Counted from the stretch's first letter, positions 23,217-49,779 are shown. The stretch: 64,000 nt of DNA from Nitrospiraceae bacterium (GCA_050246315.1 JBFWWG010000001.1:288001-352000), one strand, 5' to 3'. The notes: generated by a model from the letters alone, not told the origin. Numbers and translations are program-made.

Positions 23217-23288
23217 TGGTTAACCATTCGCCTCCCTCTGGACAATGAGATGAACACATCATTGCGTTGGTGAGTGATTCTCACCAAC
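23217..23288 (-). promoter_or_regulatory. tandem operator + sigma70-type promoter, copy 1
   Basis: + strand AATGAGATGAACACATCATT(23244-23263)-N5-GGTGAGTGATTCTCACCAAC; minus strand TTGTCC-17-TAACCA (weak -10). Confidence 0.65.
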
Positions 23289-23541
23289 GCGCTCACGTCC
23301 AGGCTTTCCCATCGGATACCTCGACCTTGCGCACCTGCTTGATACGCCGTTGTCGTACCACTGCCCCGTGGGGCGGGTCAGCCACCGAGAGACATGCCCG
23401 GCACGTGGCGGACCGACTCCTTTCAGGATGGTTCAGATACGACAACCGCGACGGATGAACCGTTCTGTGGCGCACTGGAGTCGGACGGAGGGAATTTGGC
23501 TTTCGTCCTGCTCTCGCATTGTCAGGACCATTGGGCAATGC

Positions 23542-24246
23542 TTACCCTTGTGGTGCGGATCTACCAGGGGGAAACGCGATGGCGAGGGCCTGGAGACGGC
23601 TATGCGCTCCGAGTTTTTCGAGAATGTGCTGAATGTGGTTCCGTACGGTCACAGAACTGATATAGAGCGTGTCGGCAATTTCTTTGGATGTTTTCCCAAC
23701 CGCCAGGAGGCGCAGCACCTCCTTCTCTCGCTCACTCAACGGCAAGGCGCCTGAGACAGCCGGCAGTGCCTCGGCCTCCCGTGAAACAGGGCGTTTGTGT
23801 GTGGTTTCAGACACCGCCTTGGCCCCAGGCGTCGACAAGAGAGCATGGAGTTCCTCGGCCAGTCGCAGCACCTTGATTTGCTTGCTGATGTCTCGAAAGA
23901 GATGCATCGCCAGGAACCGACCCTTTTTTCGAGAGGGAACGGGAAGCGAACTGATGTTGATCCAGATGACACGGCCGGACTTTGCATGGGTCTGCATGTC
24001 ATAGTTTCGAACCCCGCCACCGCCGGCGAGCTTGCTGCCGATCGCGCAGGAGGGCGAACACAGCGGTTGGCCACCCAATGTTTCTCCGCACAGAACCTCA
24101 CGGCAGGGACGGCCGATCACGTCCTGAGCGCGAAATCCTAACAATCGCTCGGCGGCCTTGTTCCAGAGGATCACGTTGCCGTCTTCATCCACCAGCATGG
24201 CGCCGTCGGCGGTTCTCGACACCATCGTCATAACCGAGCGGTCCAT
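23542..24246 (-). CDS. PAS-LuxR(HTH) one-component regulator
   Basis: PAS (WNKAAERLLGF..DVIGRPC) + LSEREKEVLRLLA..IADTLYIS..TVRNHIQHILEKLG. Confidence 0.92.
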   Translation of the reverse strand: MDRSVMTMVSRTADGAMLVDEDGNVILWNKAAERLLGFRAQDVIGRPCREVLCGETLGGQPLCSPSCAIGSKLAGGGGVRNYDMQTHAKSGRVIWINISSLPVPSRKKGRFLAMHLFRDISKQIKVLRLAEELHALLSTPGAKAVSETTHKRPVSREAEALPAVSGALPLSEREKEVLRLLAVGKTSKEIADTLYISSVTVRNHIQHILEKLGAHSRLQALAIAFPPGRSAPQG

Positions 24247-24305
24247 CCGTCCTCCCGGTGTCGCGTCCGGATTGTTGCCAGATTATACAGGAAAATACAT
24301 CCTAA

Positions 24306-24435
24306 CAGGCTGCGGAAAACGCGATTTGTGTGCTTCGACAGGCTCAGCACGATCGGAAAACACCAGTATATTCAATGACTGCTCCGTTCGTCCTGAGGCT
24401 CTCGAAGGATGAACGGAGGGTTTTTCCGCAGCCTG
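24306..24435. mobile_element. MITE type C (130 bp) carrying REP-like palindromes
   Basis: 14-bp TIR CAGGCTGCGGAAAA / TTTTCCGCAGCCTG with CTAA direct repeats (24302-24305, 24436-24439). Confidence 0.85.
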
Positions 24436-24562
24436 CTAATCGCCCGTGATCAGCCGTTCGCTGATCGTGGCCCTTCCTCGATCTCGGGAGCTGCCATCAG
24501 AACGATGCGGATCTCTGTCTCGGTATGCTTCTGCTGGCATCTTATCGCAACGCGCAATGCGT

Positions 24563-24634
24563 CCTGGTGTGGCCGACTCATTCAAAAAATGATGCGTCTG
24601 TCTCATTGCCGGGAGATGATCGTCCGACTATGCT
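24563..24634 (+). promoter_or_regulatory. tandem operator + sigma70-type promoter, copy 2
   Basis: CCTGGTGTGGCCGACTCATT-N5-AATGATGCGTCTGTCTCATT(24588-24607); TTGCCG-17-TATGCT. Confidence 0.75.
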
Positions 24635-24852
24635 TTGAGCATGGATCAACCGGCTTGTAGACGTGCTCGGACCTATCGAGCAGGGGAGAAAGGGGGAGCG
24701 GCGGCCAGGCGAAGTATTCGTCGTCGAGAAGGAGGTGAGGGATGGGGACGAGGAGTGCGGGAATGCATGGTTGAAGCAGCGAAGAAGGAACGCGAGAGTC
24801 GCTTGTACAATGAGCGGCTGCAGCGAGCATCCGGAGAGGAAGGAGAAGCCCC

Positions 24853-25362
24853 ATGAGAATGAGAGGATGCCATAAGGCCATGTTGGCGGTTCCCCTCGCG
24901 CTGGTTACCCTGTCGCTGTCGGGAATCGGAATCGGCAGTGCCAATGCCCAGGCGCCCGGGATGGCCCCTCCGGTCCCAGAGTTGACCATTGTGATTAAAG
25001 ACCGGGATCATGGGTATGAGCTGTTGAAGGGGACGGCGATGGCGGGGTCGCTGATGAAAATCACCGTTCGTAACGAGGACTCGGTCACGCATGGATTTGC
25101 GTCGCGTCTGTTCGAAGGCATCACGGTCAAGATGGAAGGGCAGGGCAAGGAGGTCACGGGAAAGAAGCTCAAGAGCTTTCACCTTGAGCCGGGACAGGTC
25201 ATGACGCTCACCTTCACCAAGACGTCGGCCATCGAGCCCGCAGGCTTGTACGGGGGAAACGAAGCCTATACGCAGTACCACACCATCTGGTGCGACATTC
25301 ACCCGGAGGTGCGGGGGGAGTTGCTGGTCGTTGAAACTTCTGGTGTGCCGGGAGCGGGATGA
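24853..25362 (+). CDS. secreted cupredoxin-like protein (H...C-x2-H-x2-V)
   Basis: Signal peptide ending ANA; NEDSVTHGF; WCDIHPEVRGELLVV; close paralog at 49022. Confidence 0.82.
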   Translation: MRMRGCHKAMLAVPLALVTLSLSGIGIGSANAQAPGMAPPVPELTIVIKDRDHGYELLKGTAMAGSLMKITVRNEDSVTHGFASRLFEGITVKMEGQGKEVTGKKLKSFHLEPGQVMTLTFTKTSAIEPAGLYGGNEAYTQYHTIWCDIHPEVRGELLVVETSGVPGAG

Positions 25363-29850: not shown

Positions 29851-29868
29851 TGAGTGAGAACGGAGACG

Positions 29869-32232: not shown

Positions 32233-32850
32233 TCACCCGATCGTCTTGAATCGCTTCATCCGGAACAGATCTTCCCGCTCACGCTCTTCGAGAGCCTGTC
32301 GAATGGTTTTGACCTCTTTGGTCAGAGCGGGAAGCACCACCTCATTGAGCGCATTGATCCGGCGTGTCACCTTCTTGATTTCCGATCCCAGCTTCTTCAG
32401 CCGAATCTCCACCGCCACGCTGCGAAGAATCAGTTCCAGTGCCTGCTCGAAGCCTCGCGCGGTTTCGTCAACATGCGTGGACACTCCTGAGACGGCGTAC
32501 CCCCGAGCATCCCACGCGCGGCGCACCGGAGCGTAGTGCACTTCCGGAAACCGCACGCCCCACACATTGCGTTCGATCCATTCGATGGACAACGTCCGCT
32601 TGGCCGCATAGCCGGCCGATCGGAGCGAGGCTCGGCCCTCCATGCCGAGCGCCAGCGTCAGCGTGGTCAGTGCGTGCCCCATCACGGCTTCCATTTGCAC
32701 CCGGCTTTCCGTCACCCGGTCCATGACGGCAAAGAATTCCCGCCCCAGCGCCTCACGCTTGCTCCGCAGCAGGTCCAGTCCACGCTGAGCGACCTCGATC
32801 TGGCGCTTCAGCAGCAACAGATTCATCCGTGTCCGGCCGGTGCTTTCCAT
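32233..32850 (-). CDS. atpD: V/A-type ATP synthase subunit D
   Basis: TRMNLLLLK..GLDLLRSKR, KVTRRINAL, LEEREREDLFRMK. Confidence 0.93.
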   Translation of the reverse strand: MESTGRTRMNLLLLKRQIEVAQRGLDLLRSKREALGREFFAVMDRVTESRVQMEAVMGHALTTLTLALGMEGRASLRSAGYAAKRTLSIEWIERNVWGVRFPEVHYAPVRRAWDARGYAVSGVSTHVDETARGFEQALELILRSVAVEIRLKKLGSEIKKVTRRINALNEVVLPALTKEVKTIRQALEEREREDLFRMKRFKTIG

Positions 32851-32877
32851 CGGTCGTTCCTCGTCAATCGTCCCGCG

Positions 32878-34383
32878 CTAAGGCCGGTCGTCCTCTTCAT
32901 GTGGGATGGACGGTTGACCGGTCACGTGTGACGTCCCCCCGTAATACCGTTCAATCAACTCCGGTTTCACCCTGGTCAACCGCTCCGGCGGCAGATATCG
33001 CAGGAACTTCCATCCGAGGTCCAAAGTGTCTTCGATCTCGCGCTCGCGTGGACCCTGGTTCACAAATTCCTGCTCAAAGTCCCGAGCGAGCTGCAAATAG
33101 CGTTTGTCGGACTCGCTCAGGCCGTCCTCGCCGACGATGGCGGCGAGACGCCGGATATCTCGCCCATGCGCATAGCAAGCATAGAGTTGATCCGCGACCG
33201 CCCGATGATCCTCTCGTGTTTTACCGGGACCGATCCCGAGATTCATCAGCCGCGACAGACAGGGCAACACATCGATGGGGGGAAAGACCCCTTTGCGATG
33301 GAGCTCGCGGGACAGCACGATCTGCCCTTCCGTGATGTATCCGGTCAGATCGGGAATCGGATGAGTCATGTCGTCGTCAGGCATGGTGACAATGGGAAGC
33401 TGCGTGATTGAGCCGGCTTTACCTTTGATCCGCCCGGCTCGCTCATAGATGGAGGCCAAGTCGGAATACATATACCCGGGGTACCCTCGGCGACCCGGGA
33501 TCTCCTCGCGAGCCATGGCGATTTGACGCAGGGCCTCACAGTACGCGGCCATGTCGGTCAGGATGACCAGCACATGGCGGCCGAGCGCGAACGCCAGGTA
33601 CTCCGCCGCGGTCAGGGCAAATCTCGGTGTCAGGAGCCGTTCGATCGTTGGGTCATCGGCCAGGTTCAGGAACACGACGGTGTGCTCCATGATTCCGCCA
33701 CGCTCGAACTCATCGAGATAGAACGAGGCCTCCCGGAACGTGATCCCCATCGCCGCAAAGACGATCGCGAAGGGAGAGGCGCCGGCCGCCTGGCCGGCGT
33801 CTCTCTCCGTTTCACCGGAAGGGGACGGTCCGCGTGACGAAGGGAGTCTGTCCACCTCCCGCACCTTCGCATGGCGAACGATCTGAGCGGCGACTTCCTT
33901 GGCCGGCAGGCCCGCCCCGGAGAAGATCGGCAGCTTTTGCCCTCGCACCAGCGTGTTCATCGCGTCAATCGTTGAAATCCCGGTCTGAATACAATGCGAC
34001 GGTCTCTCACGAGCGACCGGATTCAGGGGCTGTCCGATGATGTCCGCGCGAGCGTCGGGGATAATCGCCGGCAGACCGTCGAGCGGGACCCCGGCCCCGC
34101 TGAATCGTCGTCCCAAGAGATCGGGCGACAGATCCATGGCGGCGGCCGATTCCGTGAGGCGGACCCGGGTCCCCGTTACTCCCAGGCCCGTCGTCTCCTC
34201 CAGCACTTGGATCACGGCATGCTGCACGGACAGCTCGATGACTTGACCGCGCCGGGCCTCTCCGGTCGGAAGAATGATCTCCACCAGTTCTCCGAGAGAA
34301 GCCTTGCTCAGCTTCTCTGCAAAGAGAAGCGGTCCGGCGATCGCGCTCACGGTCCGATATTCGCGAGTGACCAGGTCATCCAT
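32878..34383 (-). CDS. atpB: V/A-type ATP synthase subunit B
   Basis: [60 protein letters not shown]. Confidence 0.96.
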
Positions 34384-34415
34384 CGTCCACTCCCGACCGG
34401 CCCACCTGACGCTTC

Positions 34416-36161
34416 TCACCCCTCTCCTGACGACATGATCTCCTGCTGCATGTGCTCAATCATCGTCCGGGCTTGCTGGATGCACCTGTCCGGAGGCGTC
34501 TCCTGCATACGTTCCAGCTCGCTTCTCAAGGGCGAGGCGAGGAGCGGCTCGATCGGACGGCCTTTCTTGAGCATGGCCCGACAGTAGGTGAGAAACTCCA
34601 TCTGGGCCTTCAGCATCCAGTACTGCTTCCCAAGCGGACAGGCGGCGTCAACATCGGAATAGGCATTCTGTCTGAGATAGGATTCTCGGATGAGGCGACT
34701 GACCTCTAAGACGATGCGCTCCTGATCCGGGACCGCATCAATCCCCACAAGCTGCACGACCTCCTGCAGCTCCTCTTCCTTCTGGAGCAGCACGCTCAAC
34801 TCGGTTCGAAGCTGCGGCCAGTCCTGGGCCACTTGCGTCTGAAACCAAGGGTCGAGTGCCTGGGTGTAGAGGGAATAACTGCGCTTCCAATTGATGGCGG
34901 GGAAATGTCGCCGGTGGGCCAGATCCGAGTCCAAGGCCCAGAGCCCTCCGGCCGCCTGGATCGAGCCTTGTGTCACCGGCTCTGAAAAGTCTCCACCCGG
35001 CGGAGAGATCGCCGAGACAATCGTGACCGCCCCCTGTCGGCTCGGATCTCCCAAGCAGCGGACCCGTCCACCACGTTCATAGAAGCCGGCCAACTTACCG
35101 GCCAAATAGGTGGGATAGCCTTCCTCTCCGGGCATCTCTTCCAGCCTGGCGGAAATCTCGCGCGTCGCCTCGGCCCAGCGCGAGGTGCTGTCGGCCATGA
35201 GGGCGACCGCATAGCCCATGTCCCGATAATATTCGGCCATCGTGATGCCCGTGTAGATCGACGTCTCCCGGGCCGCCACGGGCATGTTCGAGGTATTGAT
35301 GACCAGGACCGTGCGTTCCATAAGCGGCAGGCCGGTGGCGGGATCCTTCAGGTGGGGGAACTCGGTCAGGACCTCCGTCATTTCGTTGCCTCGTTCTCCG
35401 CACCCGATGTAAATGATGATCTCGGCCTGCGCATACCTGGCGAGCGTCTGCTCAACGACGGTCTTTCCCGTTCCGAAGCCGCCCGGCACAATCACGGTTC
35501 CACCGGCGGCAAGGGGAAGGAGCATGTCGAACACCCGCTGGCCGGTGATGAAGGGCACGACCGGAGGAAGCCGCTCGGCAACGGGGCGGGACGTCCGCAC
35601 CGGCCAGCGTTGCAAGAGGGTCAACGGACCGTAGCCATCAAGCCAGGCAACCGGCTCTTCGATCGTATAGGTGCCTTCCTCAATCTTGGAGAGCGTCCCC
35701 GATAATCCGGGTGGGACGAGGATGCGATGTTCGATTCTTGCGGTCTCTTGGACAACTCCCACGCATGTTCCGCCGCCGACGGCCGTGCCGGGACGGACCA
35801 CTGGAGTGAACGCCCAGCGCCGGTCTCGGGACAGGGCCGGCAGACTCAGGCCTCGCGCCATCCAATCACCGCACTGGGCCGCGATGACGTTCAATGGCCG
35901 CTGGACTCCGTCGAAGATCGAACCAAGGAGGCCGGGCCCAAGTTCCACGTGGAGCGGTTCTCCCGCATCGACCACCTCCTCTCCCAGCATCAGCCCCGTG
36001 GTGTCTTCATACACTTGAATCGTCGCTTCGCTTCCGCGCAGTCGTATCACCTCTCCGAGCAATCCTGTCTTACCGACTGCGACACGATTGAACATGCGGG
36101 TCTGCTCCATGCCCCCCGCGACAACGGTCGGACCCGAGATCTTGATGATCGCTCCGGTCAT
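34416..36161 (-). CDS. atpA: V/A-type ATP synthase subunit A
   Basis: P-loop [50 protein letters not shown]. Confidence 0.96.
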
Positions 36162-37621: not shown

Positions 37622-38200
37622 TTAGCCCTCTCCGAACAACAGCCGGTTCAGTTCGATGGTCAAGGCCGGCTTGGCCTTCGCCAGGCGCGTCGCAAAGGAG
37701 TTCGTGAGTACCTCGCCGTTCCCTTCTACCTTGATCCCCAGGAGAAGCGCATCCTGATGCTGCGCTTCCACTTCGATGCCGCGTTGTTTCAGGCTCTCCT
37801 CAAGGAATGGCCGCTCGCGATCATCAATGAACACGCGAGGCGATGGAGAAGGGGAGGCGGCCAGCACTTCCGCCAGCAGTGCGTTGAGGACTTCCGTCCG
37901 AGCATGGCCGGCGAGCGACCGGACTTTCTCGCCGGCATGTCGCCACACGGCATCCAGGATCTCCTGCTTGGCCTGCAGCACAATCCGGCGGCCGCTCAAC
38001 GCAGCTCGGGCCACCAGGGCGGCCCGCCGGGCAGAGAGGTCTCGACGAATCGTGAGTTCGACCTCACGGGCCAATGCCTCGCTTTCCCGCCTCGCGTCAG
38101 ACAACAGCTCCTCGGCCTCCACCTGAGCCTGGTGCAGGATCGCATCGCGTTTGTTTCTTCCCTCTTCCAACAGCGCCTCGATGAGTCTGTCGTACGACAT
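37622..38200 (-). CDS. atpE: V/A-type ATP synthase subunit E
   Basis: N-terminal coiled coil, LGI...NSFATRL C-terminal pattern, position between K and C. Confidence 0.85.
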   Translation of the reverse strand: MSYDRLIEALLEEGRNKRDAILHQAQVEAEELLSDARRESEALAREVELTIRRDLSARRAALVARAALSGRRIVLQAKQEILDAVWRHAGEKVRSLAGHARTEVLNALLAEVLAASPSPSPRVFIDDRERPFLEESLKQRGIEVEAQHQDALLLGIKVEGNGEVLTNSFATRLAKAKPALTIELNRLLFGEG

Positions 38201-38208
38201 CGTCAGAC

Positions 38209-38430
38209 TCACTTCAGCGCGAAGAGAATCAGAATGGCCACGGTGAAGCCGAAGATGACCAAGGTTTCCGGGATGACGAGTAAGATCAACATCGTCCCGA
38301 AGGTCTCGGGCTTCTCCAAAATCGCGCCAATCGCCGCTGCACCAATCTTCGCCTGCGCCAACGCGGTAGCCAGCGCGGCCAGCCCGATAGCCAAGCCCGC
38401 ACCGATCGCGACGAGTCCGATCTCAGTCAT
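38209..38430 (-). CDS. atpK: V/A-type ATP synthase proteolipid subunit K/c (single hairpin)
   Basis: Two TM helices, AQAKIGAAAIG, conserved Glu in IPETLVIFG. Confidence 0.93.
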   Translation of the reverse strand: MTEIGLVAIGAGLAIGLAALATALAQAKIGAAAIGAILEKPETFGTMLILLVIPETLVIFGFTVAILILFALK

Positions 38431-38457
38431 GATGCCCCTCCCTGGTTGTCCACCGCC

Positions 38458-40377
38458 TCACCCTCGAATGGGCGTGGCCGCATGGAGATGCCGAAACGGT
38501 TTGTACGGCCGACCGCCTGGCGAAAAGAAGTTTTCGAAAAATTCTACATAATGGAGCCGGAGCGCCTGGACGGTCGGCGAGAGAATGCCGAAGGCGAGGT
38601 TGATCCCGTGGAGCGCTCCCGTGACGACGATGCCCAGGAAGACGTTGCCCACCAGGCCGCCCAGCTTGTTGGCGGCAAAGGCGAGCGCGGCCGATGCGAC
38701 ACCGATCCCCATGAGACGCAGGTAGGAGAGCACATTGACGACGTTATGCAGCTCCATGGCCCCGCGGCTCCCGCCGAAAACGAAGATGACGACCAGCGCG
38801 CACAGCAATCCTGAGACCTCGGCCGCCAGCCATTCGCGTCGGGCGAATCCGGCGCCGCTTGCGATGAGAGAGATGAACGACAGCACCAACACCATGCCGC
38901 CGCATTTCGTCAGACACTCTTGCCGGTTCCCATGCCGCCAGGCCGACCGCGCACCCAGGGCAAGCCCGAACACCACATGCACCGTGCCGATCCCGATGGA
39001 CAGGGAGAGAAGCGGCAGGAACGCCTGCATGCGGTTCAGCACCGGATACAGACCGACATACTCACCCAGCTCTCCAAACAGCTCTCCGAACAGGACACCG
39101 AAGGCGATCGCCGAGCCCGAAGCCCACAGGAAGATGGTCGAAATGTCGCGAACAAGCGGATGGGAGCGGTGCCGCCGTCGAACCATGGCCGCGGCGACAA
39201 GCAGGAGCAGTCCATAGCCGACATCGCCGAGGATCACGCCATAGAACAGGGGAAAACATACCGCCATATAGGGGGTCGGATCGATGCTCCCGTACCGCGG
39301 CAAGGCCACGACCCGAGTCAAGGTCTCGAATGGTCGGGCAAGGACCGGGTTCCGCAGTGCCACCGGAACCGTCGCCCATTCCTGGGGGGCAACCGGACAG
39401 GCTTCCAACACAACCTTGCCGCCGAATTCGTCCTCGATCCTGAGACGCAAGGCGGTGAGCAGCTCGGAGGGCACCCAGCCATAGATCAGAATGGTCAGCT
39501 CGGTTTGATAGAACTGCAGACCCACTTCAATGTGTTCGAGGCCACAGGTAATCGCATCGTCGTACTCCGTCAATTCCTGACGCCGCTGGAACGCCACCTC
39601 GTTCAGCTCCCGGCGATAGCGGTCGGCCTCGTGGGGAAGATCCGTTTTTTTCTGAAGGAGCAGACGCAGAGCCTCTCCCAGGGGCTTATCCGCGACGGAG
39701 ACGGGCAGCCGCAGTTCGGCAATGCCTTCTTCCCACAACAGATTCCGAACTCTGACACCATGCACCTTGGGAAACACCAGCAGAACCACAAGGGAGCGTG
39801 CGTCTATCCGTGTGTGGAACAGCTCATACCGATGGTCCGTGATCTTGGCCATCATTTCCCGCAGGATCGGCAGGAGCGCACCGGAACCCTCGCGCTCATC
39901 GAGCGTGACGCCGAGGTGGTCTAGTTCCTCGCTGTCCTGGATGAACCGCAAGAACGGAGCCAGTCCCGCCAAGGCCCTCTCGTATTTGGACAGGAGGGCC
40001 AGCTCTTCCTCACTGGCCTTCAGCCTGGTCGCAAGGTCATCAACCTGCCGACAGACCTCACGAACCCGGCCGGCAAGGCGGATGAGGACGTCTTCCGTCA
40101 GTTCCGAATATTGAGTGGGTCGTGCGATCAGTCGCCTATCGGATGGCATCTCCGGAAGGAGCAGCAGCAGGCGGCGCACCTCATCGCGCAATCGTTCCAG
40201 TTCAGCCCGTCGACGTCTGGCGGATTCATCCATCACCTGCGGCCGAAGAGGAACCTGAGCCGCCTCCAACGGGGTCGGTTCGATATGCAGGATGCCAACC
40301 TCCTGGAGCGTCGAGGTGACTCGATCGATCAGCATCCGGGGAGAGACCACTCGGACCTTTGCCATCGACTCGATCAT
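38458..40377 (-). CDS. atpI: V/A-type ATP synthase subunit I (a)
   Basis: PRYGSIDPT, GDVGYG, NVLSYLRL (essential Arg), LRLHYVEFFENFF..GG..YKPF. Confidence 0.95.
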   Translation of the reverse strand: MIESMAKVRVVSPRMLIDRVTSTLQEVGILHIEPTPLEAAQVPLRPQVMDESARRRRAELERLRDEVRRLLLLLPEMPSDRRLIARPTQYSELTEDVLIRLAGRVREVCRQVDDLATRLKASEEELALLSKYERALAGLAPFLRFIQDSEELDHLGVTLDEREGSGALLPILREMMAKITDHRYELFHTRIDARSLVVLLVFPKVHGVRVRNLLWEEGIAELRLPVSVADKPLGEALRLLLQKKTDLPHEADRYRRELNEVAFQRRQELTEYDDAITCGLEHIEVGLQFYQTELTILIYGWVPSELLTALRLRIEDEFGGKVVLEACPVAPQEWATVPVALRNPVLARPFETLTRVVALPRYGSIDPTPYMAVCFPLFYGVILGDVGYGLLLLVAAAMVRRRHRSHPLVRDISTIFLWASGSAIAFGVLFGELFGELGEYVGLYPVLNRMQAFLPLLSLSIGIGTVHVVFGLALGARSAWRHGNRQECLTKCGGMVLVLSFISLIASGAGFARREWLAAEVSGLLCALVVIFVFGGSRGAMELHNVVNVLSYLRLMGIGVASAALAFAANKLGGLVGNVFLGIVVTGALHGINLAFGILSPTVQALRLHYVEFFENFFSPGGRPYKPFRHLHAATPIRG

Positions 40378-40772
40378 GGCTCCGCCTGCCTCCGGACCTC
40401 GTGACCATGTTGAAGTGAATCGTCCGCGACCCCCTTTGAGCTCGGCAGAATCCGCTCAAGCACCAGTTCGACCGCTTCCTCCATTCTGTCCATGCACCGG
40501 GTCCTCAAATGGCCGACCTTTGCCCGGACATCCGTGAGCAGGTGTTCGGCCTCACGTTCCGCCTCCGCGAGGCTCCTCGCCTCGGCCTCCGCCTTGTTCC
40601 GCTCAAGTGCGCGACGTTGTTCCCGCAACAGGGTTTCAGCCTGGACCTTCGCTCTCTCGAGAAGGGCCGCCGCTTCCTGTCGCGCCGCCTGGACCATACT
40701 GTCCACTCTGCGCTCGGCAGCCTGGATGTGGATGAGAATCTCAGGAGACCGCTGATCCGAAGGCTCCGACAT
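40374..40772 (-). CDS. V/A-type ATP synthase subunit G/H (peripheral stalk)
   Basis: Ala/Glu/Arg coiled coil ending EAVELVLERILP; 4-bp overlap with subunit I. Confidence 0.82.
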   Translation of the reverse strand: MSEPSDQRSPEILIHIQAAERRVDSMVQAARQEAAALLERAKVQAETLLREQRRALERNKAEAEARSLAEAEREAEHLLTDVRAKVGHLRTRCMDRMEEAVELVLERILPSSKGVADDSLQHGHEVRRQAEP

Positions 40773-40794
40773 GGCTGCCTCAGATGCCGACGAC

Positions 40795-42420
40795 TCATCC
40801 GTCCGAGTGGAGTAATTCATCGACCCTGGCGACCGGCACGCCGGAGCCGACCGCGCCGAATCGAGTCATGATGGATGACTGGACGGCAATGAGTTCTCCT
40901 TGACTGTTGAAGATCGGACTCCCGCTGCCGCCGCTCGTGGTCTGGGCATCATGGATTATGCGATTCGGTACGGCATCGCTCACGTGCCCTTGCGTGGTCA
41001 GGGGTCTGATGAATCCGAGATCCGCTAGGTCTTGAATCAGCTTCTGCAAATTGCGCTCTGCTCCCTTCAACAGCTTGATGGCGGATTGCTCATCCAGCCT
41101 CGCCAATATCCCTTCAAGGCCCGAGGGGTAGCCCACAACCACGACCGCCTCACCCGGCACTGCCTGAGGCGGTGGCCTCTCCACGGGAACCATGGCCATG
41201 CCCTTGGGCTCTGGAGTGAGCTGGGCCAGCGCCACATCTCCTTGCTCAGCCACCTTCAGAACGGTGACGTCATACGCCTGCGCGCGGCCGGGAAAATAGG
41301 CGCGCATGATCATAAGACGCGGCTCGAGACCGGCTTGGATCATCTCCGCCGTGCCCTTCGGATCCATGGACCAGGGCTCGGCAAGGTGCCGATTGGTCAC
41401 GATGCGCCCCGTCGCATCGATCAGAAAGCCGGTCCCGGTGTACTCCAATAGGGCATGAGGCGCCTCCGCTCTTGCGCCGGCTTCGACAAACCCGTAGGCA
41501 ATGTACAGCAGGCACGTCGATGGGCCGAACCGTTTGATCAACCGTTCGGCGTTGTTTCGTTCAGCCTCCAACGTTCTGAGACGGAAGGTCAACGCCTGGA
41601 GCTCCTCCGATGAGGCTCTCTTCTTCTGCTGTTCTTCCACCATCGCCATTAAGCGTTGTTCTTCTGCCTCATGGATCGCCAAGGTGTCGGCAAGCCGTCT
41701 CCGTTCGTCTGCGGCCTTCTGCTCTAATTCGGCCAAGGAGACGCGAGAGCGCTCAAGCTCCTTCAGCAAGGAGACGATATGGTGTTCGTGAGCCTCTTCG
41801 GTGAGGTAGTGATGGTAAGCGAGCCCTCCGATGGCCGCGAGAAGCACTGCCATCAGGCCCGCTGCGACGATCTGCGTCGCCAAGGTGGCATTCCGCGCGA
41901 TCTCGAAGGCGAGTTGGCCGACAAATGATCGGAGGGTCATTCGCCCATCAGCACGTCCGGCGGAAGCGACGTCGCGGGCATCTTGCAGAATCTCCTTCAG
42001 TAGTTTGCAACGAGTATATTCTTCGGGACGGATACGGAAACGGAGAGTGGGACCGTTCGGCCCCAGTTGGATCACATCCCTGTCGCGGAGAATGATTTCC
42101 TCAACCGGTTCTCGATTCAGCAATGTCCGGTTTGCCGGGTCGCAGTTGCGCAACCACATCTCGCAACCCGCCTGGAACATCTCGGCTTGCAGCGGAGCAA
42201 CCGGGCACTCACCATTGGAGGAAAACGACACATCCACGCCCGGCGCACTGCCGAGTGTCACCGGTGCGCGCTGGAAGAACTGCGTCTCGCCTCGCCGACA
42301 ACCCGAGAGATGTACGAGCGAAAATTTCAAACCGCTGCCGGACGAGCGCCGCTCCCCGATATCGGGCGCTTCGTCGGGGACAGAGGCCTGCATCATCTCG
42401 CGGCTGGTCACCGTCGCCAT
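40795..42420 (-). CDS. FHA-like domain + TM + coiled coil + trypsin-like serine protease
   Basis: FHA-like (TLG...NRTLLN...LRDRDVIQLG), TM IVAAGLMAVLLAAIGGLAY, triad TNRH / DVAL / GGSGSP. Confidence 0.82.
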   Translation of the reverse strand: MATVTSREMMQASVPDEAPDIGERRSSGSGLKFSLVHLSGCRRGETQFFQRAPVTLGSAPGVDVSFSSNGECPVAPLQAEMFQAGCEMWLRNCDPANRTLLNREPVEEIILRDRDVIQLGPNGPTLRFRIRPEEYTRCKLLKEILQDARDVASAGRADGRMTLRSFVGQLAFEIARNATLATQIVAAGLMAVLLAAIGGLAYHHYLTEEAHEHHIVSLLKELERSRVSLAELEQKAADERRRLADTLAIHEAEEQRLMAMVEEQQKKRASSEELQALTFRLRTLEAERNNAERLIKRFGPSTCLLYIAYGFVEAGARAEAPHALLEYTGTGFLIDATGRIVTNRHLAEPWSMDPKGTAEMIQAGLEPRLMIMRAYFPGRAQAYDVTVLKVAEQGDVALAQLTPEPKGMAMVPVERPPPQAVPGEAVVVVGYPSGLEGILARLDEQSAIKLLKGAERNLQKLIQDLADLGFIRPLTTQGHVSDAVPNRIIHDAQTTSGGSGSPIFNSQGELIAVQSSIMTRFGAVGSGVPVARVDELLHSDG

Positions 42421-42455
42421 CGTGGTCCGGCTCCGACCATCGCGCCATTGCCTCC

Positions 42456-42677
42456 CTACAGACCGGAAGGCCCACCGCCCTCTTTCACGAGCTGTCGCCT
42501 TTTCGCCAGAGCGTCTGCCTGGATCACGTTCTTGCAATGGTCGCAGATCCAATGCCCATACAAGAGGGCCGGCCCCATCTGCCCGCAGAGCAGACACTGA
42601 CCGGGCTTTACGTACGGCGCTGTCGCTTCACCGAACTGTTCGGACTTCATGTCCGTGTGGTTGTCTGTCTTTCCCAT
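42456..42677 (-). CDS. small Zn-ribbon-like protein (CxxC...CxxC)
   Basis: RBS GGAGG; CLLC-x13-CDHC; same strand, between cupredoxin and protease genes. Confidence 0.6.
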   Translation of the reverse strand: MGKTDNHTDMKSEQFGEATAPYVKPGQCLLCGQMGPALLYGHWICDHCKNVIQADALAKRRQLVKEGGGPSGL

Positions 42678-42739: not shown

Positions 42740-43189
42740 CTATACCGTGGGAACCTCCAGCACATACAATTCCCCCTTCATGCGCTCGTGCAGGTCGCAG
42801 TGAAAGGGAAAGCTTCCAGGTCTTTCGGCGTTGAACCGGATCACCAGAGTCTTTCCTGGATTCACATAAAATCCTTCCACGCCTTTCCCATAGGTCGCGA
42901 TCTGATCGTCTTCCCCGGAGACGAGGAGTCCGTTCAGCATCGACGAAGTAAAGCCGTGCCGCACCTGGTCACGATTCTGCAAGACGATCTCGAGAGAAGC
43001 GCCTACCTGGAGGGGACCGCCCTTGGCCAGAATGAAGGCGCGATCCTCAATGACGATCTCGATCCGCTGCTCGCGGGTTCCTTGGAGTTGAAACTGGGAT
43101 CGAGCCTCCTTCGGGTTTGAACTCACCACCGTCCAGAGCAGCGCCATGATGCTGATAGTCGCACCAAGGACCGGGAGATGGATTCTCAT
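42740..43189 (-). CDS. secreted cupredoxin with canonical type-1 Cu ligands
   Basis: Signal peptide; NRDQVRHGF and FHCDLHERMKGEL (H...C-x2-H-x2-M). Confidence 0.85.
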   Translation of the reverse strand: MRIHLPVLGATISIMALLWTVVSSNPKEARSQFQLQGTREQRIEIVIEDRAFILAKGGPLQVGASLEIVLQNRDQVRHGFTSSMLNGLLVSGEDDQIATYGKGVEGFYVNPGKTLVIRFNAERPGSFPFHCDLHERMKGELYVLEVPTV

Positions 43190-44526: not shown

Positions 44527-45150
44527 AGCCCTGACCTCGGTTCAGGATGTATGACACCATTCCACCCGAACCTCGCGCACCCGTTGGGATTGCCGCCACG
44601 GCCCCGCTTGTCGGACCGTTCCATCCGATGCCTCACGACACGCAGATGCAGTCGTTCCCCGCAGAACACACCACGCCGACCCTCGCCCACATCGACCCCT
44701 TCCCCGAACCTCTCCCAAACCAGCAACCCGCCGCATCGAGCACCCCTCTCTTCTGGCGTTCTCGCCGCCCATGCTCGGCTCTGGCTGCTCCATCGGTAGA
44801 CAGGCTCCCCCCTTCGGCTCTTTATTGAGAAGAAGCATCGGACATGCCTGTACCCCTCCCGCTCGACCGTGCGGGACCACTTGGTATCACGGGTACTTAG
44901 ATGCTGAGCGTTTCGTGGAGCGGGTCTGTTGCGAGCCGATTGGGGTGTTTTAGCTCATGAGTCATGTCGTACCTGTCGCAAAATACCTCAGGGAAGAGCC
45001 GGGGCTCATCCCCTGGACTCACGAGCAGAGAAGCACCCCGTGATCGGCTCCGGCGCATCGGCGCGTGACCGATCACGGGAAACACAGAGAATCGTGGCTG
45101 CTCGGCGGCCCTCAACAGGTCCGGTTGAGGACCACCTCTCACCGCATGAC

Positions 45151-45585
45151 TTACCCGTCACCCCAGAAGAATTCGTCCCAGTTGACGGTCTTGTCCCACC
45201 ACTGCTGGTGGCGCTTGACGTCGTGCAAGGCCGGCGGCGTTACCCTGTAACAGTGATCCCAGATCGCATCCGCGGCCTTGGCGCTGATCCCGCCGTCCCT
45301 CGATTCCAGCATGTCCATGAAGCGGTTCATGGCCGCGTAGGTTCTCTCCTGATCCCCATTCTCGTAGGCGCGCTGCACGACGTGGAGTTGGTCCAGATAG
45401 ATCTCAAACATCGTGGATTCCCCCTTGACCAGCGCAGCCCCCTGCTGAGCCACCACGAACCCCTTCAACTCCTCAAGCCATCCACCCTGCGACGGCACAG
45501 TCCCGGATTCACTGCTCGCTGGAAGCAGAAGGATCGCGACCACAAGGCCAGCCAACCACATCCTCTGATTGAATGTTGACTTCAT
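45151..45585 (-). CDS. secreted hypothetical protein, MNRFMDML family copy 1
   Basis: RBS GGAGG, signal peptide; three paralogs within 3.7 kb. Confidence 0.85.
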   Translation of the reverse strand: MKSTFNQRMWLAGLVVAILLLPASSESGTVPSQGGWLEELKGFVVAQQGAALVKGESTMFEIYLDQLHVVQRAYENGDQERTYAAMNRFMDMLESRDGGISAKAADAIWDHCYRVTPPALHDVKRHQQWWDKTVNWDEFFWGDG

Positions 45586-45847
45586 GGTTCAGCCCTCCGT
45601 TTCGTATCGGTCTCCACGCTCCGGTCCGGCTGCCTTCGCAATCAGGACACTCGGAAAGGATGGGCGCGAAACGTGGAGGAGGCCGAAGCCCACGCTTCGC
45701 GCCGCGAGGCCGGGGCTAGCCCCTGAACAACCCCGTACCCCGTCTCTGCCTCTTTTTCGTATCACCGCGACCCCACGACTTCTGATGCTCACCTTCATTC
45801 CACTGCCTCCCGTTCAAGATCCGCCGAGTCATATTCATTGTAGTTCC

Positions 45848-45919
45848 AGCATAGGGTCTTGAATGGTCCCGCACAATGAGCAGGAGGCCTCATTTTGCGC
45901 CTGGGGCGACATCATCAGT
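45848..45919 (-). promoter_or_regulatory. tandem operator + sigma70-type promoter, copy 3
   Basis: + strand AATGAGCAGGAGGCCTCATT(45875-45894)-N5-CCTGGGGCGACATCATCAGT; minus strand TTGTGC-17-TATGCT. Confidence 0.72.
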
Positions 45920-45945
45920 CGATCGAGTAGGCTATGCCGCGGAGT

Positions 45946-46653
45946 TTAGGGGGTGGTGGGCGAACTGGTGCGCGCTGGGTCGGATGGCATCGACCCGGCG
46001 CCCGGAGGAAAAGCGATCGCGAGAGCCTGGAGTCGGCTGTGGGCACCCAGTTTTTCAAGGATGTGCTGGATGTGATTGCGCACCGTCTTGGGACTAATGC
46101 TCAGGGTATCGGCGATGCTTGCGGATGAGGCGCCGGTGGCCACCAAACGAAGGATTTCTCGCTCCCGTTCGGTGAGCGGAAGGGTTGCCGGGATGTCCGG
46201 CGGCGAGTCCGGGCGGATGTCCACCGCAGGCAATCCCGGAGATCCGAGCACGACCTGTAGCTCGTGCACCAAATGGCGGGCTCGCGCTTGGTTGGTGATA
46301 TCTCGGAATAAATGGGCGAGCCAAAACACGGTCCGTTTGCGGGAGGGAACCGGCAACGTGCTCACGTTCAACCAGATGAGGCGGCCTTCCTTCGTTCGTG
46401 TCTGCATGTCGAACTGTCTGACCCCGCCGCCGCTTCGGATGCGGCCCGCGATCGGGCAGGTCGGCGAGCACAGAGGATGACCGTTCAACGTCTCACCACG
46501 AATGACCTCACAGCAGGGACGGCCCACGACCTCCTGAGCTTTGAACCCCAGCAAGCGCTGAGCGGCTCGATTCCAGAACGCCACCCTCCCGTCCTGGGCC
46601 ACCAGCATGGCGCCCTCGGCCGCCCTTTCCAGCATGGCGGTGAGCTGTTTCAT
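45946..46653 (-). CDS. PAS-LuxR(HTH) one-component regulator, paralog of 23542-24246
   Basis: Same architecture; identical TVRNHIQHILEKLGAHSRLQALAIAFPPG. Confidence 0.92.
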   Translation of the reverse strand: MKQLTAMLERAAEGAMLVAQDGRVAFWNRAAQRLLGFKAQEVVGRPCCEVIRGETLNGHPLCSPTCPIAGRIRSGGGVRQFDMQTRTKEGRLIWLNVSTLPVPSRKRTVFWLAHLFRDITNQARARHLVHELQVVLGSPGLPAVDIRPDSPPDIPATLPLTEREREILRLVATGASSASIADTLSISPKTVRNHIQHILEKLGAHSRLQALAIAFPPGAGSMPSDPARTSSPTTP

Positions 46654-46932
46654 GGTCGTTGTCCGCGAACAGCACGCCGCGAATCGCCCGCACTCGGCCG
46701 TGAGCCACTCACGACGTGCTCACTGTTCGGTAGGCTCCTTCGCCTCGGCACCTCAGCAACCGCAATCCGTAGAAGCTCCTGCCGGAGACGGTCCCCTCTT
46801 CATGTGGAATGCCGCATCCTCGCCGGCATCACTCTGATCCGAGCGGCGACCTGCGGTCCACCAGGGATCCGTGCCTCGTCTCCAGCCTCTCATCTTTCCT
46901 CCCCATCGCATCAGGTTCGGACCCTTACATCG

Positions 46933-47376
46933 TTATCGCGGCCAGTGGACGCCTTCGGGCGCTCGGGGCTGTTCAGTTTTCGGAGGTCCGCTGTGCCGTT
47001 CCACATCATGGAACTGTGTCGGCGTCACGAGATTGCAAAAGTTGAACAGCTCATTCGCCGCGACGTCGGGAATCCCGCCCTCACGCGCCTCCAACATGTC
47101 CATGAACCGATTCATGGCGATATAGGTGGCATCGGTGTCTCCTGTTGCGTACTTCGTCTCCACCACTCGTATCTGGTCGAGGTAGAGATCCCAATTGGCT
47201 TTCGGATACTCCTTCTTGTAATACGCATCCCCCTGGTAGAAGATGATCGCGCCGTGGAGATCATCCATCCAGGTAAAGGGGCGCGAGCTCGCCTGGACAG
47301 CCATCGGTGCAAGCACGCAAGCGAGCCCCACCACCAGCGCCATCGCCGTCATGCTTCTGTGAGTGACGTGTTTCAT
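46933..47376 (-). CDS. secreted hypothetical protein, MNRFMDML family copy 2
   Basis: RBS GAGG, signal peptide ending VQA; YIAMNRFMDMLEAREGGI...CNLVTPTQFHDVERH. Confidence 0.82.
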   Translation of the reverse strand: MKHVTHRSMTAMALVVGLACVLAPMAVQASSRPFTWMDDLHGAIIFYQGDAYYKKEYPKANWDLYLDQIRVVETKYATGDTDATYIAMNRFMDMLEAREGGIPDVAANELFNFCNLVTPTQFHDVERHSGPPKTEQPRAPEGVHWPR

Positions 47377-47426
47377 CGTTGCACCTCGGCATGGTCGTTT
47401 CTGACTCTTGCTGCCGTTCGTTCCGT

Positions 47427-47858
47427 TCATTCCCCCCAGAAGAAATTCTCCCAATCCACGGTCTTGTCCCACCGACGTTTATGACGTTTCTCGTCGTGAA
47501 ATGCCGTCGGTGTGACTTGGTAACACAAATCCCAGATGGCCTCCGCGACATCTGACCTGATCCCTCCCTCGCGAGTCTCCAGCATGTCCATGAAGCGGTT
47601 GATGGCTACATAGGTCCCGCGCAGGTCGTGGCTTCGCAACGTGTGCCGCACGAGGAAGAGTTGCCCGAGATAGGGGTCATAGGAGCCTTCCCGTTCAATG
47701 CCCTTCTGGATCAGGGTGAAGCCGGTGAGTTTGTCGATCCACCATTCCGGGAGAGGAGTTTCACCGTCGGCTTCTCGCGGCAGATGCACCAGGGTGGACA
47801 GCGCGAACATACCGAGTATGGCCGGTACCAACGAGAGCGGGCCTGTCATGCGGGACAT
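47427..47858 (-). CDS. secreted hypothetical protein, MNRFMDML family copy 3
   Basis: YVAINRFMDMLETREGGI...CYQVTPTAFHDEKRH..WDKTVDWENFFW. Confidence 0.85.
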   Translation of the reverse strand: MSRMTGPLSLVPAILGMFALSTLVHLPREADGETPLPEWWIDKLTGFTLIQKGIEREGSYDPYLGQLFLVRHTLRSHDLRGTYVAINRFMDMLETREGGIRSDVAEAIWDLCYQVTPTAFHDEKRHKRRWDKTVDWENFFWGE

Positions 47859-47879
47859 GATCCCACCTGTTCGCTCGGA

Positions 47880-48353
47880 TCAAGGAACCACCCGGATCGT
47901 GCTCCGCAGCTCCTCCTCCGGTCCATGTAACGGACAGAAAAACTGATAAGACTCTGGTCCTGCGGCACCTCCCGCTGAATGACGCTTCAACGGTTCCGTG
48001 CTGACCTGGACATGGACGGTTTCTCCCGAGGTCACATAGACCCGTAACGCTTTGGGTGTCGACCCCTCCGTCCCCTCAAGGATTTGCTCGAATAGATCCG
48101 GGGCTTCAAACACATGCGTCCGGGGTGTCGGATTTTCCAGAACAAAGACCAGCTTCTCATCCAGAAGCACGCGTCTGTAAATCACCACCTCCCGTGGAGA
48201 CCAAGCCGCTGCATCTCCTCCCACATCTTGGATGACAAAGTGAAACTCTGCGGCGAGCGCCGTCGGCAGCGCCAGACCGTTCCCCGTGATCATCCCAAGA
48301 AGGACCAGGCCTGCCCGCAACAATCGTTCGTGGACGCGCTTCATGCCGTTCAT
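47880..48353 (-). CDS. secreted cupredoxin-like protein (nitrosocyanin-like group)
   Basis: Signal peptide ending ALA; AEFHFVIQ, NPTPRTHVF, FFCPLHGPEEELRSTIRVVP. Confidence 0.8.
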   Translation of the reverse strand: MNGMKRVHERLLRAGLVLLGMITGNGLALPTALAAEFHFVIQDVGGDAAAWSPREVVIYRRVLLDEKLVFVLENPTPRTHVFEAPDLFEQILEGTEGSTPKALRVYVTSGETVHVQVSTEPLKRHSAGGAAGPESYQFFCPLHGPEEELRSTIRVVP

Positions 48354-48391
48354 CCCTTCGGCGATCGACCTCTCGCTCTCGGCAGTGCCGG

Positions 48392-48826
48392 TCACTCCTC
48401 CCAAAAAAACTTCTCCCAATCGACGGTTTTCTCCCACCATTGCTGGTGGCGCTTCACATCGTGCAGTGCCGGCGGGGTGACCTCATAGCAATAATCCCAG
48501 ATGGCATCGGCGGCCCCGGCGCTGATCCCTCCTTCCCGGTTCTCCAGCATGTCCATCAGGCGATTCATCGCCGCATAGGAGCCGTTCCAATCACTCCGGT
48601 CATAGAGACTCCGCACCAACTGCACTTGCCCGATATAGGGATCGAACGATCCCGGTTCGGCCTTGGCCTGCGCCGTTCCTTGCTGGACCACGACAAATCC
48701 GGTCAATTGATCCAGCCAGCCCTCCGGCCAGGCAGCCATGGCATTGACCGTCCAGAGCATGGCCGTCGCGAACAGCAGGCAGAGGACTAGCGCCGTCTTT
48801 CCTTGTGCTGTGATACCCCGCGCCAT
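48392..48826 (-). CDS. secreted hypothetical protein, MNRFMDML family copy 4
   Basis: RBS GGAGG, signal peptide ending AMA; YAAMNRLMDMLENREGGI...CYEVTPPALHDVKRH. Confidence 0.85.
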   Translation of the reverse strand: MARGITAQGKTALVLCLLFATAMLWTVNAMAAWPEGWLDQLTGFVVVQQGTAQAKAEPGSFDPYIGQVQLVRSLYDRSDWNGSYAAMNRLMDMLENREGGISAGAADAIWDYCYEVTPPALHDVKRHQQWWEKTVDWEKFFWEE

Positions 48827-49021
48827 GACCCCTCCCGATTTGGTCGGCCCTCACTCACCTTGAGGGTACGACCCGGATCGATCCACCCACATCGGCATCA
48901 GTGCAACGGGACTCATCCGCTCCTGTCCGGCCGTTTTGCGAAATGCCGCAGCCCCGGCCCGGCTCCTCTGGGAGCGACGTCCGAGGCTGCGACGGTCTCT
49001 CCACGACCACCAACCTAGACC

Positions 49022-49531
49022 TTATCCCCCTCCAGGGACACCGGAGGTTTCAACCACCAGCAACTCACCGCGCACTTCCGGGTGAATGTCGCACCAGATG
49101 GTGTGGTACTGAGTATAGGCTTCGTTTCCACCGTACAAGCCATCGCGCTGCACATCGGACGGCTTAGTGAACGTAAGCGTCATGACCTTTCCCGGATCAA
49201 GATGGAAGCTCTTGATCTTCTTTCCCGTGACGACCTCTCCTTGGCCTTCAAGCTTCACCGGGAGATTGTGGAACAAGTTTGACGTAAACCCGTGGGTGAC
49301 CGAGTCCTCGTTGCGAACGGTGATCTTCATCAACGACCCGGCCATGGCCGTCCCCTTCAACAACTCATAGCCATGGTTCCGGTCCTTTATGACAATGGTC
49401 AACTCCTGAACCGGCGCCGCCATTCCTGGCGCCTCAGCATACGCAATTCCGCCTCCCAGCCCCGACAGCGTCAGCGCTGCCAGCGCGAGGGGAACCGCCA
49501 ACACGGTTTTGGGGCCTCCTCTCGTTCTCAT
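49022..49531 (-). CDS. secreted cupredoxin-like protein (H...C-x2-H-x2-V), close paralog of 24853-25362
   Basis: RBS AGGAG; NEDSVTHGF; identical WCDIHPEVRGELLVVETSGVPG. Confidence 0.82.
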   Translation of the reverse strand: MRTRGGPKTVLAVPLALAALTLSGLGGGIAYAEAPGMAAPVQELTIVIKDRNHGYELLKGTAMAGSLMKITVRNEDSVTHGFTSNLFHNLPVKLEGQGEVVTGKKIKSFHLDPGKVMTLTFTKPSDVQRDGLYGGNEAYTQYHTIWCDIHPEVRGELLVVETSGVPGGG

Positions 49532-49707
49532 CGTGGCTCTCCTTTCTTCTGTGGATGCGTCCGGCACCCACGACTCCGACGAGTTGATATACGCTTCCTC
49601 ATCTCTGGTCTCGATTATCCTGAAGTCGTCGTGCTCTCGCTCCACCTCCTTCCCTGCCGCGACTTTTCAGCCAATGCGCCGGCACGTCCGCTTCGGCCCA
49701 CACATCA

Positions 49708-49779
49708 ACCGTAATCAACCTGTTATCCCGAGACAATGAGACAGACACATCATTTTCGGACTGAGCCGATTACCTCACC
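49708..49779 (-). promoter_or_regulatory. tandem operator + sigma70-type promoter, copy 4
   Basis: + strand AATGAGACAGACACATCATT(49735-49754)-N5-ACTGAGCCGATTACCTCACC; minus strand TTGTCT-17-TACGGT. Confidence 0.75.

Follow-up and report, generated by a model that had tools for sequence, protein, structure and literature searches.

What reads a 45-bp tandem palindrome that recurs, always in the same register with the promoter, at four places in one Nitrospira genome, and what does it control? The four copies (S1 to S4) lie in a 64,000-nucleotide stretch of DNA from a Nitrospiraceae bacterium (GCA_050246315.1, JBFWWG010000001.1:288001-352000), hereafter the window, which is C1:288001-352000 of a full genome of 4,385,457 bases in 30 contigs; the names that public sources give to homologs assign the organism to Nitrospira. 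They precede genes for secreted cupredoxin-like proteins (cupA, cupB) and for a helical protein family, X, and stand beside the genes of two PAS-LuxR proteins, P0001 and P0002. Our analysis points to the 45-bp element as the operator of a PAS-LuxR family of one-component regulators that is specific to Nitrospira and would include P0001 and P0002. We consider it probable that a regulator dimer on the gene-proximal dyad activates transcription in the manner of a class II activator, with assistance from another dimer at the distal dyad.

In soils and wastewater plants, nitrite is oxidized mainly by Nitrospira, bacteria for which, to our knowledge, no genetic system exists. In the literature, supplements aside, we found no description of this Nitrospira operator and no defined Nitrospira pair of transcription factor and operator. 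On a PAS-LuxR, copper, or 6S link in Nitrospira, the accessible portions of the literature mention only LuxR proteins of the acyl-homoserine lactone type.

A tandem dyad fused to the -35 box at four predicted promoters

An initial sequence-only reading had placed the motif AATGAG-N8-MTCATT at 23244, 24588 (inverted), 45875, and 49735, with a weaker second box exactly 5 bp farther upstream of each copy, and had described the proximal box as running into a TTG-type -35 with a -10 box 17 nt later. Reading the sequence at these positions confirms four exact matches, a 5-bp gap between the boxes at 4/4 sites, and the arrangement TTGnnn-17 nt-TAnnnN at 4/4 sites.

At S1, on the minus strand, the proximal 20-bp dyad occupies 23244-23263 (AATGAGATGAACACATCATT as shown; AATGATGTGTTCATCTCATT in gene orientation). 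Its weak distal dyad, GGTGAG-N8-ACCAAC, is at 23269-23288, 25 bp from the proximal dyad centre to centre, and the predicted promoter (23217-23245) joins TTGTCC (23240-23245) over 17 nt to TAACCA (23217-23222), with a predicted start at ~23210. S2 is on the plus strand, with its proximal dyad at 24588-24607 (AATGATGCGTCTGTCTCATT in gene orientation; AATGAGACAGACGCATCATT read on the minus strand), its weaker distal dyad at 24563-24582, and a predicted promoter (24606-24634) made of TTGCCG (24606-24611), 17 nt, and TATGCT (24629-24634), for a start near ~24641. The remaining two are again on the minus strand. S3 comprises a proximal dyad at 45875-45894 (AATGAGGCCTCCTGCTCATT in gene orientation), a weaker distal dyad at 45900-45919, and a predicted promoter (45848-45876) with TTGTGC (45871-45876), 17 nt, TATGCT (45848-45853), and a start at ~45841. 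The corresponding coordinates for S4 are 49735-49754 for the proximal dyad (AATGATGTGTCTGTCTCATT in gene orientation), 49760-49779 for the weaker distal dyad, and 49708-49736 for the predicted promoter, in which TTGTCT (49731-49736) is followed after 17 nt by TACGGT (49708-49713), with a predicted start at ~49701.

Each site faces a gene. S1 lies 279 bp past the P0001 stop codon and is directed at cupB1-cupB2, and S2 lies 342 bp upstream of the P0001 start codon and is directed the opposite way, at cupA1, which is followed by genes for a thiamine pyrophosphate-dependent decarboxylase and an electron transfer flavoprotein. S3 lies 52 bp past the P0002 stop codon and is directed at X1, and S4 is directed at a run of genes, cupA2-X2-cupB3-X3-X4-P0002, that ends with the regulator itself.

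The motif is confined to these places. A scan of all 4,385,457 bases returned no exact match beyond the four window copies. With at most one mismatch allowed, the window holds four places only, counted as 8 strand-matches, where shuffled sequence gave a mean of 0.55 and 0/100 shuffles reached 8; the whole-genome scan adds 8 one-mismatch places elsewhere. Of the near-miss places examined, 11/12 are under an open frame of at least 113 aa. A position matrix scores S1-S4 at 25-31 bits, inflated values given that it was trained on these very sites, and the next-best place in the genome at 18.8 bits. Neither the matrix nor the one-mismatch scan yielded additional regulon members elsewhere in the genome, their matches lying inside open frames.

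S2 and S4 are duplicates of a single promoter region, and the four sites are therefore not four independent events. The boxes might be functionless similarity left over from segmental duplication of the cup/X clusters, a reading that the paralogy of the S2 and S4 regions and of the genes behind them would favor. The box is, however, far better conserved than its flanks. Within the genome, the S2 and S4 boxes are 19/20 identical, whereas the 21 nt between box and -10 are only 10/21 identical; the same holds across genera, and in four other genera the box also precedes an unrelated gene, that of a 6S-like RNA. These results already disfavor a duplication remnant, which we regard as extremely improbable.

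The S1 distal box was also considered as a hairpin or terminator of the P0001 gene. The segments GTTGGTGAG and CTCACCAAC can pair, and the pairing is not kept in orthologous sites; this candidate was rejected.

The element accompanies a PAS-LuxR gene

PAS-LuxR regulator 1, P0001 (234 aa; 23542-24246, minus strand; Pfam PAS and GerE), and regulator 2, P0002 (235 aa; 45946-46653, minus strand; last gene of the run behind S4), are 58% identical to each other. They are the only full-length paralogs of this kind in the genome, and both are in the window beside sites. As had been claimed, their recognition helices are identical: the stretch TVRNHIQHILEKLGAHSRLQALAIAFPPG is common to the two proteins letter for letter.

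The further claim, that the adjacent PAS-LuxR proteins would bind the site, is supported by comparative association of motif and gene. We collected 18 loci from other genomes that have a full-length ortholog together with its downstream DNA (L003-L009, L011, L033-L040, L043, and L045), leaving out L041, which comes without downstream DNA, and the loci of the near-identical genome G002. At 16/18 loci, the regulator stop codon is followed after 7-165 bp by a site with no more than one mismatch, on the same strand and directed toward the next gene. The site behind the regulator is degenerate at L043, and L040 carries an additional site upstream of the regulator gene itself. We also scanned 121 genomes of the family with the strict pattern AATGAKG-N7-MTCATTG and with a regulator threshold of E <= 1e-30. 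The pattern gave 35 matches in 25/121 genomes, as against 1 match for the reversed control, and the regulator was detected in 30/121 genomes. Twenty-one genomes have both, 4 have the motif without the regulator, 9 have the regulator without the motif, and 87 have neither, which corresponds to an odds ratio of 51 and a Fisher p of 7e-13; this value is overstated, as are all our p-values, since the genomes that supply the sites are related.

The motif might instead belong to another factor, such as a Fur-family or other global regulator, with the PAS-LuxR gene merely a member of that regulon. Some counts do speak against the pairing with PAS-LuxR: L038 has the regulator and no site within 2.4 kb downstream, 9/30 regulator genomes lack a strict match (two of these, G004 and G011, have one-mismatch sites), and 4/25 strict-motif genomes have no detected regulator, among them G013 with a full tandem site. 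The half-sites AATGAT and ATCATT, moreover, resemble classical Fur-box hexamers. The Fur box is a contiguous 19-bp arrangement of GATAAT-like hexamers, whereas 8 variable bp separate the half-sites at 4/4 window sites and the centre is likewise variable in the 21 sites aligned below; half-sites spaced by 8 bp within a 20-bp dyad match the 16-20 bp dyads of LuxR-type proteins rather than the contiguous Fur layout. The adjacency at 16/18 loci and the rarity or absence of the motif in the 87 genomes without the regulator also argue for the PAS-LuxR protein. As to the exceptions, three of the four motif-only matches (L127, L133, and L135) have neither a -10 nor a second box and look like chance, and the G013 genome is only 90% complete, in 310 contigs. 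We therefore hold a foreign factor to be quite unlikely and retain PAS-LuxR as the probable partner of the element.

A contig labeled Gaiellales, QZKG01000068.1 (L033 and L034), carries two regulators, 80% and 67% identical to P0001, and a full cupA/cupB/X cluster with operators, which suggests either a mis-binned Nitrospira contig or gene transfer.

Promoter register and second box are kept among relatives

Alignment of 21 distinct sites gives the consensus AA-AATGATGC..cCg.CTCATT-GTc, followed by a 17-nt spacer and TAnnnT. Its most conserved columns are the box, the G after the box, and the T, A, and T of the -10 at the 17-nt spacer. The G that completes TTG is found only at the gene-proximal end of the dyad and therefore belongs to the promoter rather than to the palindrome. 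As a hold-out set we used 19 further sites, chosen by the proximal-box pattern alone, some of which share genera with the training sites. TAnnnT stands at the 17-nt spacer in 12/19 of them, against a background of 0.0037 per position; L123, L127, L133, and L135 look like chance matches.

The second box recurs as well. When the proximal matrix is scanned upstream over 61 possible offsets, its best match falls at 25 bp in 14/21 training sites and at 26 bp in 4/21, and at 25 or 26 bp in 11/19 hold-out sites, whereas the best matches of the same matrix scanned downstream as a control scatter. Scores run from -9 to +14 bits, compared with 19-28 bits for the proximal box, which marks the second box as real but weak. 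The gap between the boxes measures 6 bp instead of 5 bp in more distant genera. With respect to the promoter, the box ends 2 bp inside TTGnnn and its centre is at ~-43.5 from the predicted starts. As judged from these alignments, the conserved register of box, TTG, and TAnnnT fits an activator site that overlaps the -35.

The operator precedes a 6S-like RNA in other genera

Four hold-out sites lie away from a regulator gene: L014 (1501-1712; G013), L118 (G044), L125 (G042), and L121 (G098). Each has a second box and precedes a conserved RNA of ~150 nt. The Rfam 6S model (RF00013) scores the operator-linked RNAs at 31.7-36.3 bits, below its gathering threshold of 46.4; in L118 the whole 6S model aligns, and 12/36 predicted pairs show compensatory changes. 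On the strength of the subthreshold score, the full alignment, and the compensatory pairs we call this RNA 6S-like. No other 6S candidate was found in G013 or G044. The 6S-like gene of the window genome (C2:127293-127367, 41.4 bits) has an ordinary TTGACT-17-TATCGT promoter and no operator.

These genes also bear on the promoter itself. In alignment A6, the TTG fused to the box aligns with the -35 TTGA of the ordinary promoters of homologous 6S-like RNA genes, which provides independent support for the predicted promoter, and the closing stem of the RNA starts ~9 nt past that -10. Since 6S-like RNA genes carry the operator in other genera, the signal may have to do with the growth state of the cell. 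The neighbors of the operator-linked RNA gene in G013 include genes for a V-ATPase D subunit and a P-type ATPase.

A model of activation from the -35-overlapping dyad

In the mechanism that we propose, a dimer whose subunits meet through the PAS domain and the helix after it would set two LuxR-type helix-turn-helix (HTH) domains on the proximal 20-bp dyad (family consensus AATGATGC-N4-(g)nCTCATT). The dyad shares its final two bases with the beginning of the weak -35 TTGnnn, an overlap that puts the dyad centre near -43.5. From there the protein would recruit or stabilize RNA polymerase at the weak TTGnnn, 17 nt, TAnnnT promoter, as LuxR and PimM do. The low-affinity dyad 25-26 bp upstream, with its centre at ~-68.5, would probably take a second dimer cooperatively. 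The regulon would consist of four promoters, serving cupB1-cupB2, cupA1, X1, and cupA2-X2-cupB3-X3-X4-regulator 2, and with regulator 2 behind S4 the circuit would include positive feedback. What the computation itself shows is a unique motif, its tie to the regulator gene, a conserved promoter register, a constant set of target families, and a model of the dimer; operator binding, activation, cooperativity, and the signal are inferred.

The same protein at the same site could also be a repressor that covers the -35 and the site upstream of it and blocks RNA polymerase until a signal releases it. The proximal dyad, which overlaps the -35 by 2 bp and spans ~-53 to -34, is placed where a bound protein can repress, and tandem sites are common in repressor operators. 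The target genes are present in RNA-library contigs, so a permanently occupied site cannot be silencing them there. Repression would not, however, need the register of box, TTG, and TAnnnT that is base-exact in 21 sites and in 12/19 hold-outs, whereas an activator that contacts the polymerase would. Both the -35 and the -10 are weak, as at activator-dependent promoters. Characterized PAS-LuxR relatives, namely PimM and its relatives (PMC9774167) and VqmA (PMC8284805), are described as activators in the available parts of these sources. We judge repression unlikely and continue with activation by PAS-LuxR.

Activation at these promoters has to be weighed against further observations that do not favor it. 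All four promoters are missed by a plain scan for the sigma-70 consensus, and the S1 -10, TAACCA, lacks the final T. A separation of 25-26 bp amounts to ~2.4 helical turns, so that the dyads face different sides of the helix, an arrangement that does not sit easily with simple side-by-side cooperativity. RNA-library contigs from 3 of the 7 studies whose runs contain the stretch include these genes, as seen in runs X1, X2, X3, and X8; the public RNA runs are assembled contigs, which show no transcript starts, ends, strand, or level. A contig of run X3 (49082-49802) spans S4 and ends where a promoter-like CTGACC-16-GATAAT site would start transcription, and S3 is bridged by contigs of run X1 (45706-46672) and run X2 (45790-47116). 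Contigs that bridge the operators make read-through or upstream starts possible.

The CTGACC-16-GATAAT site, called by the sigma-70 scan on the minus strand at 49835-49808, is unrelated to the element and begins ~30 bp farther upstream than the S4 distal box. Over cupA2 the contigs reach a high depth, and run X1 has no listed contig over 49682-49895; neither was used as evidence.

A PAS domain with invariant cysteines

Pfam places PAS_9/PAS at residues 8-122 and GerE at residues 169-223, which is the architecture of PAS-LuxR one-component regulators such as PimM, VqmA, and EL222: an N-terminal PAS and a C-terminal LuxR HTH within ~190-260 aa, and no receiver domain. The GerE match (PF00196) is above the curated cut-off in both proteins (E 1.2e-19 for P0001 and 3.4e-20 for P0002), and a PDB sequence search matched DesR, GerE, DosR, and NarL. 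Across 22 homologs, T200, R202, N203, and H204 of the HTH are invariant, and such invariant recognition-helix residues would fit a motif that is conserved across genera. Invariant in the PAS domain of the same homologs are C48, C63, C67, and H115.

In an AlphaFold2 model (mean predicted local distance difference test score, pLDDT, of 83.8), the PAS fold leads into a long helix (121-138), which a disordered linker connects to the HTH. Judged by its secondary structure, C48 would open a short helix, C63 and C67 would precede the following one, and H115 would sit on the last strand; this region is the usual cofactor site of PAS domains. With the whole protein, Foldseek matched VqmA (6ide, 7dwm, and 6kju) and EL222 (8a5r and 3p7n); with the PAS domain alone, it matched short LOV proteins (5luv and others) and DosP. 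A homodimer model passed with an interaction prediction score from aligned errors (ipSAE) of 0.76, against 0.00 for the best control, with a tool whose calibration counts are 20/30 for true pairs and 1/23 for single chains. At least 58% of the contacts are common to its runs, and the partner pLDDT is at least 74. The modeled interface comprises residues 2-14, the PAS sheet, and helix 123-137. This result may reflect likeness to solved PAS dimers.

The Cys48/Cys63/Cys67/His115 set suggests that a metal or cluster is bound, or that the thiols form a redox switch. That it binds a metal or an iron-sulfur cluster, and so defines a new class of one-component sensor for redox state, oxygen, or copper, is a speculative idea to which we assign a rather low probability. 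Were it true, the regulator would set the supply of periplasmic copper proteins (cupA, cupB, and cupC) and of putative chaperones of family X; the cup and X proteins could be hitherto unassigned electron carriers of the nitrite-oxidizing chain of Nitrospira; and in some lineages the same sensor would drive the 6S-like RNA, coupling a redox signal to global control of RNA polymerase.

Predicted target genes encode cupredoxin-like proteins and a Nitrospirota-restricted family

The same families, secreted cupredoxin-like and helical Met/Cys/His proteins, lie downstream of the site at every locus. Behind S1, on the minus strand, are cupB1 (22674-23210; likely start at an internal ATG at ~23147), which encodes a secreted cupredoxin-like protein with an invariant H..C-P-L-H, and its paralog cupB2 (22120-22602), the second gene behind this site. 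Behind S2, on the plus strand, cupA1 (24853-25362) encodes a secreted cupredoxin-like protein with an invariant H..C-D-x-H. S3 precedes X1 (45151-45585, minus strand), a secreted helical protein of the Nitrospirota-restricted family X. The S4 run, also on the minus strand, opens with cupA2 (49022-49645; likely start ATG at ~49531), 79% identical to cupA1, and continues between cupA2 and regulator 2 with X2 (48392-48826), cupB3 (47880-48440), X3 (47427-47858), and X4 (46933-47472).

How firmly these families connect to cupredoxins, whose copper ligands are His...Cys-x2-His, differs. cupC (42740-43189) passes Pfam Cupredoxin_1 with an E of 1.9e-10. cupA falls below the cut-off for that family (E 0.0014-0.002), yet it aligns with cupC and shares the invariant H, C, and H; its invariant residues are H80, C147, D148, and H150. 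cupB, with invariant H99, C161, and H164, is linked to cupredoxins by profile comparison only (93.8%, E 1.8e-7). Family X has four paralogs in the window and invariant M87, M91, M93, C113, H122, and H127. Its model is a helical bundle (pLDDT 85) for which Foldseek gave no PDB match at E <= 0.001, and the Protein Atlas returned only hypothetical proteins of Nitrospirota, plus a weak FIMAH lead. For cupA, cupB, and X, NCBIfam and PDB sequence searches gave nothing useful. Its conserved residues suggest that family X may be a periplasmic metal-handling protein, and by the same kind of evidence the regulon would comprise periplasmic copper proteins with possible copper-handling partners.

The predicted leaders are long, ~210 nt for cupA1 (24641-24852) and ~170 nt for cupA2 (49532-49701), and both contain a GAAGGAGGTG element a good distance ahead of the likely start codon. 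Rfam at its gathering threshold gave no match over 19000-52000, and therefore no known riboswitch in these leaders. In the sister genome G001 (L011:720-1277), an S3-type promoter is followed by a cupB-like gene and then by X1; the window does not have that cupB-like gene, and ~250 nt separate the S3 promoter from X1. In a related strain represented by run X8, 138 bp are missing at 44564-44703, in apparently non-coding sequence between the citrate synthase gene and X1.

Relation to known PAS-LuxR and LuxR-type systems

The available part of PMC9774167 reports that Streptomyces PAS-LuxR regulators bind a 16-bp palindrome, CTVGGGAWWTCCCBAG, in the -35 region. The proteins described there (PimM, PteF, and CfaR) resemble P0001 and P0002 in having an N-terminal PAS and a C-terminal LuxR HTH within ~200 aa, a palindromic operator in the -35 region, and a regulator gene inside the cluster that it controls (PMC9774167). 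The differences are several. The PimM-type operator measures 16 bp, whereas the Nitrospira operator is the 20-bp AATGATGC-N4-..CTCATT, accompanied by a further, weak dyad 25-26 bp upstream, and the 21-site consensus does not match the PimM consensus as given in that part of the source. PimM-type targets, as described there, are antibiotic biosynthesis genes rather than genes of secreted cupredoxin-like and helical proteins, and the Nitrospira PAS domain, unlike that of the PimM type, carries the invariant Cys3-His set. No close sequence relation to the PimM type was seen, the NCBIfam and PDB sequence searches giving generic PAS/GerE matches only.

The structural match to VqmA, a protein of Vibrio cholerae and of phage VP882, extends over the full length. 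According to the accessible text of PMC8284805, the PAS domain of VqmA dimerizes, its HTH sets the DNA specificity, and it recognizes an 18-bp palindrome, GG-N6-CC, to activate the promoter of the small RNA VqmR; an operator before an RNA gene is also what we find in four other Nitrospiraceae genera. Identity to VqmA is, however, ~20%, the motif and the regulon are different, and VqmA binds the ligand DPO, for which nothing in our data suggests a role with the Nitrospira regulators.

EL222, a light-activated LOV-HTH protein, shares the two-domain build and the size and is likewise a structural match, and the Nitrospira PAS fold is nearest to short LOV proteins. The flavin-binding cysteine motif of LOV domains is NCRFLQ. 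It is not present in any of the 22 aligned homologs, which conserve Cys48, Cys63, Cys67, and His115 instead.

In the LuxR/lux box and TraR/tra box systems, a 20-bp dyad ~42-44 bp upstream of the start, overlapping a weak -35, is bound by a dimer with a LuxR-type HTH. The Nitrospira dyad has the same length, a similar centre, and the same overlap with a weak -35; in contrast, LuxR and TraR carry a domain that binds acyl-homoserine lactones, not a PAS domain, and the lux box has no second dyad at 25-26 bp. NreB binds an iron-sulfur cluster through four cysteines of a PAS domain and is a histidine kinase that works via a separate response regulator. As a lead, it shares with the Nitrospira proteins several conserved PAS cysteines and an output of the LuxR/NarL type; unlike NreB, the latter have their PAS domain fused directly to the HTH, with only three Cys and one His invariant. 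The element would work like the PimM, VqmA, and lux systems, and its own motif, its tandem layout, the Cys-rich PAS domain, and a new regulon set the Nitrospira family apart.

For Nitrospira, the analysis gives a precise predicted operator of 45 bp, a likely regulator, and a small conserved regulon of secreted copper-type proteins. The element could serve as a regulated promoter part for these bacteria, and it points to what the cell senses through the Cys-rich PAS domain.

Neighboring genes

Between the two regulated clusters lies a V/A-type ATPase operon (32233-40820) with genes for the D, B, A, F, C, I, and G-like subunits. It is adjoined by the gene of a protein with an FHA and a trypsin-like peptidase domain (40795-42597). 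Directly downstream of the S1 operon, on the same strand, 19852-21918 encodes a sigma-54 activator with two GAF domains.

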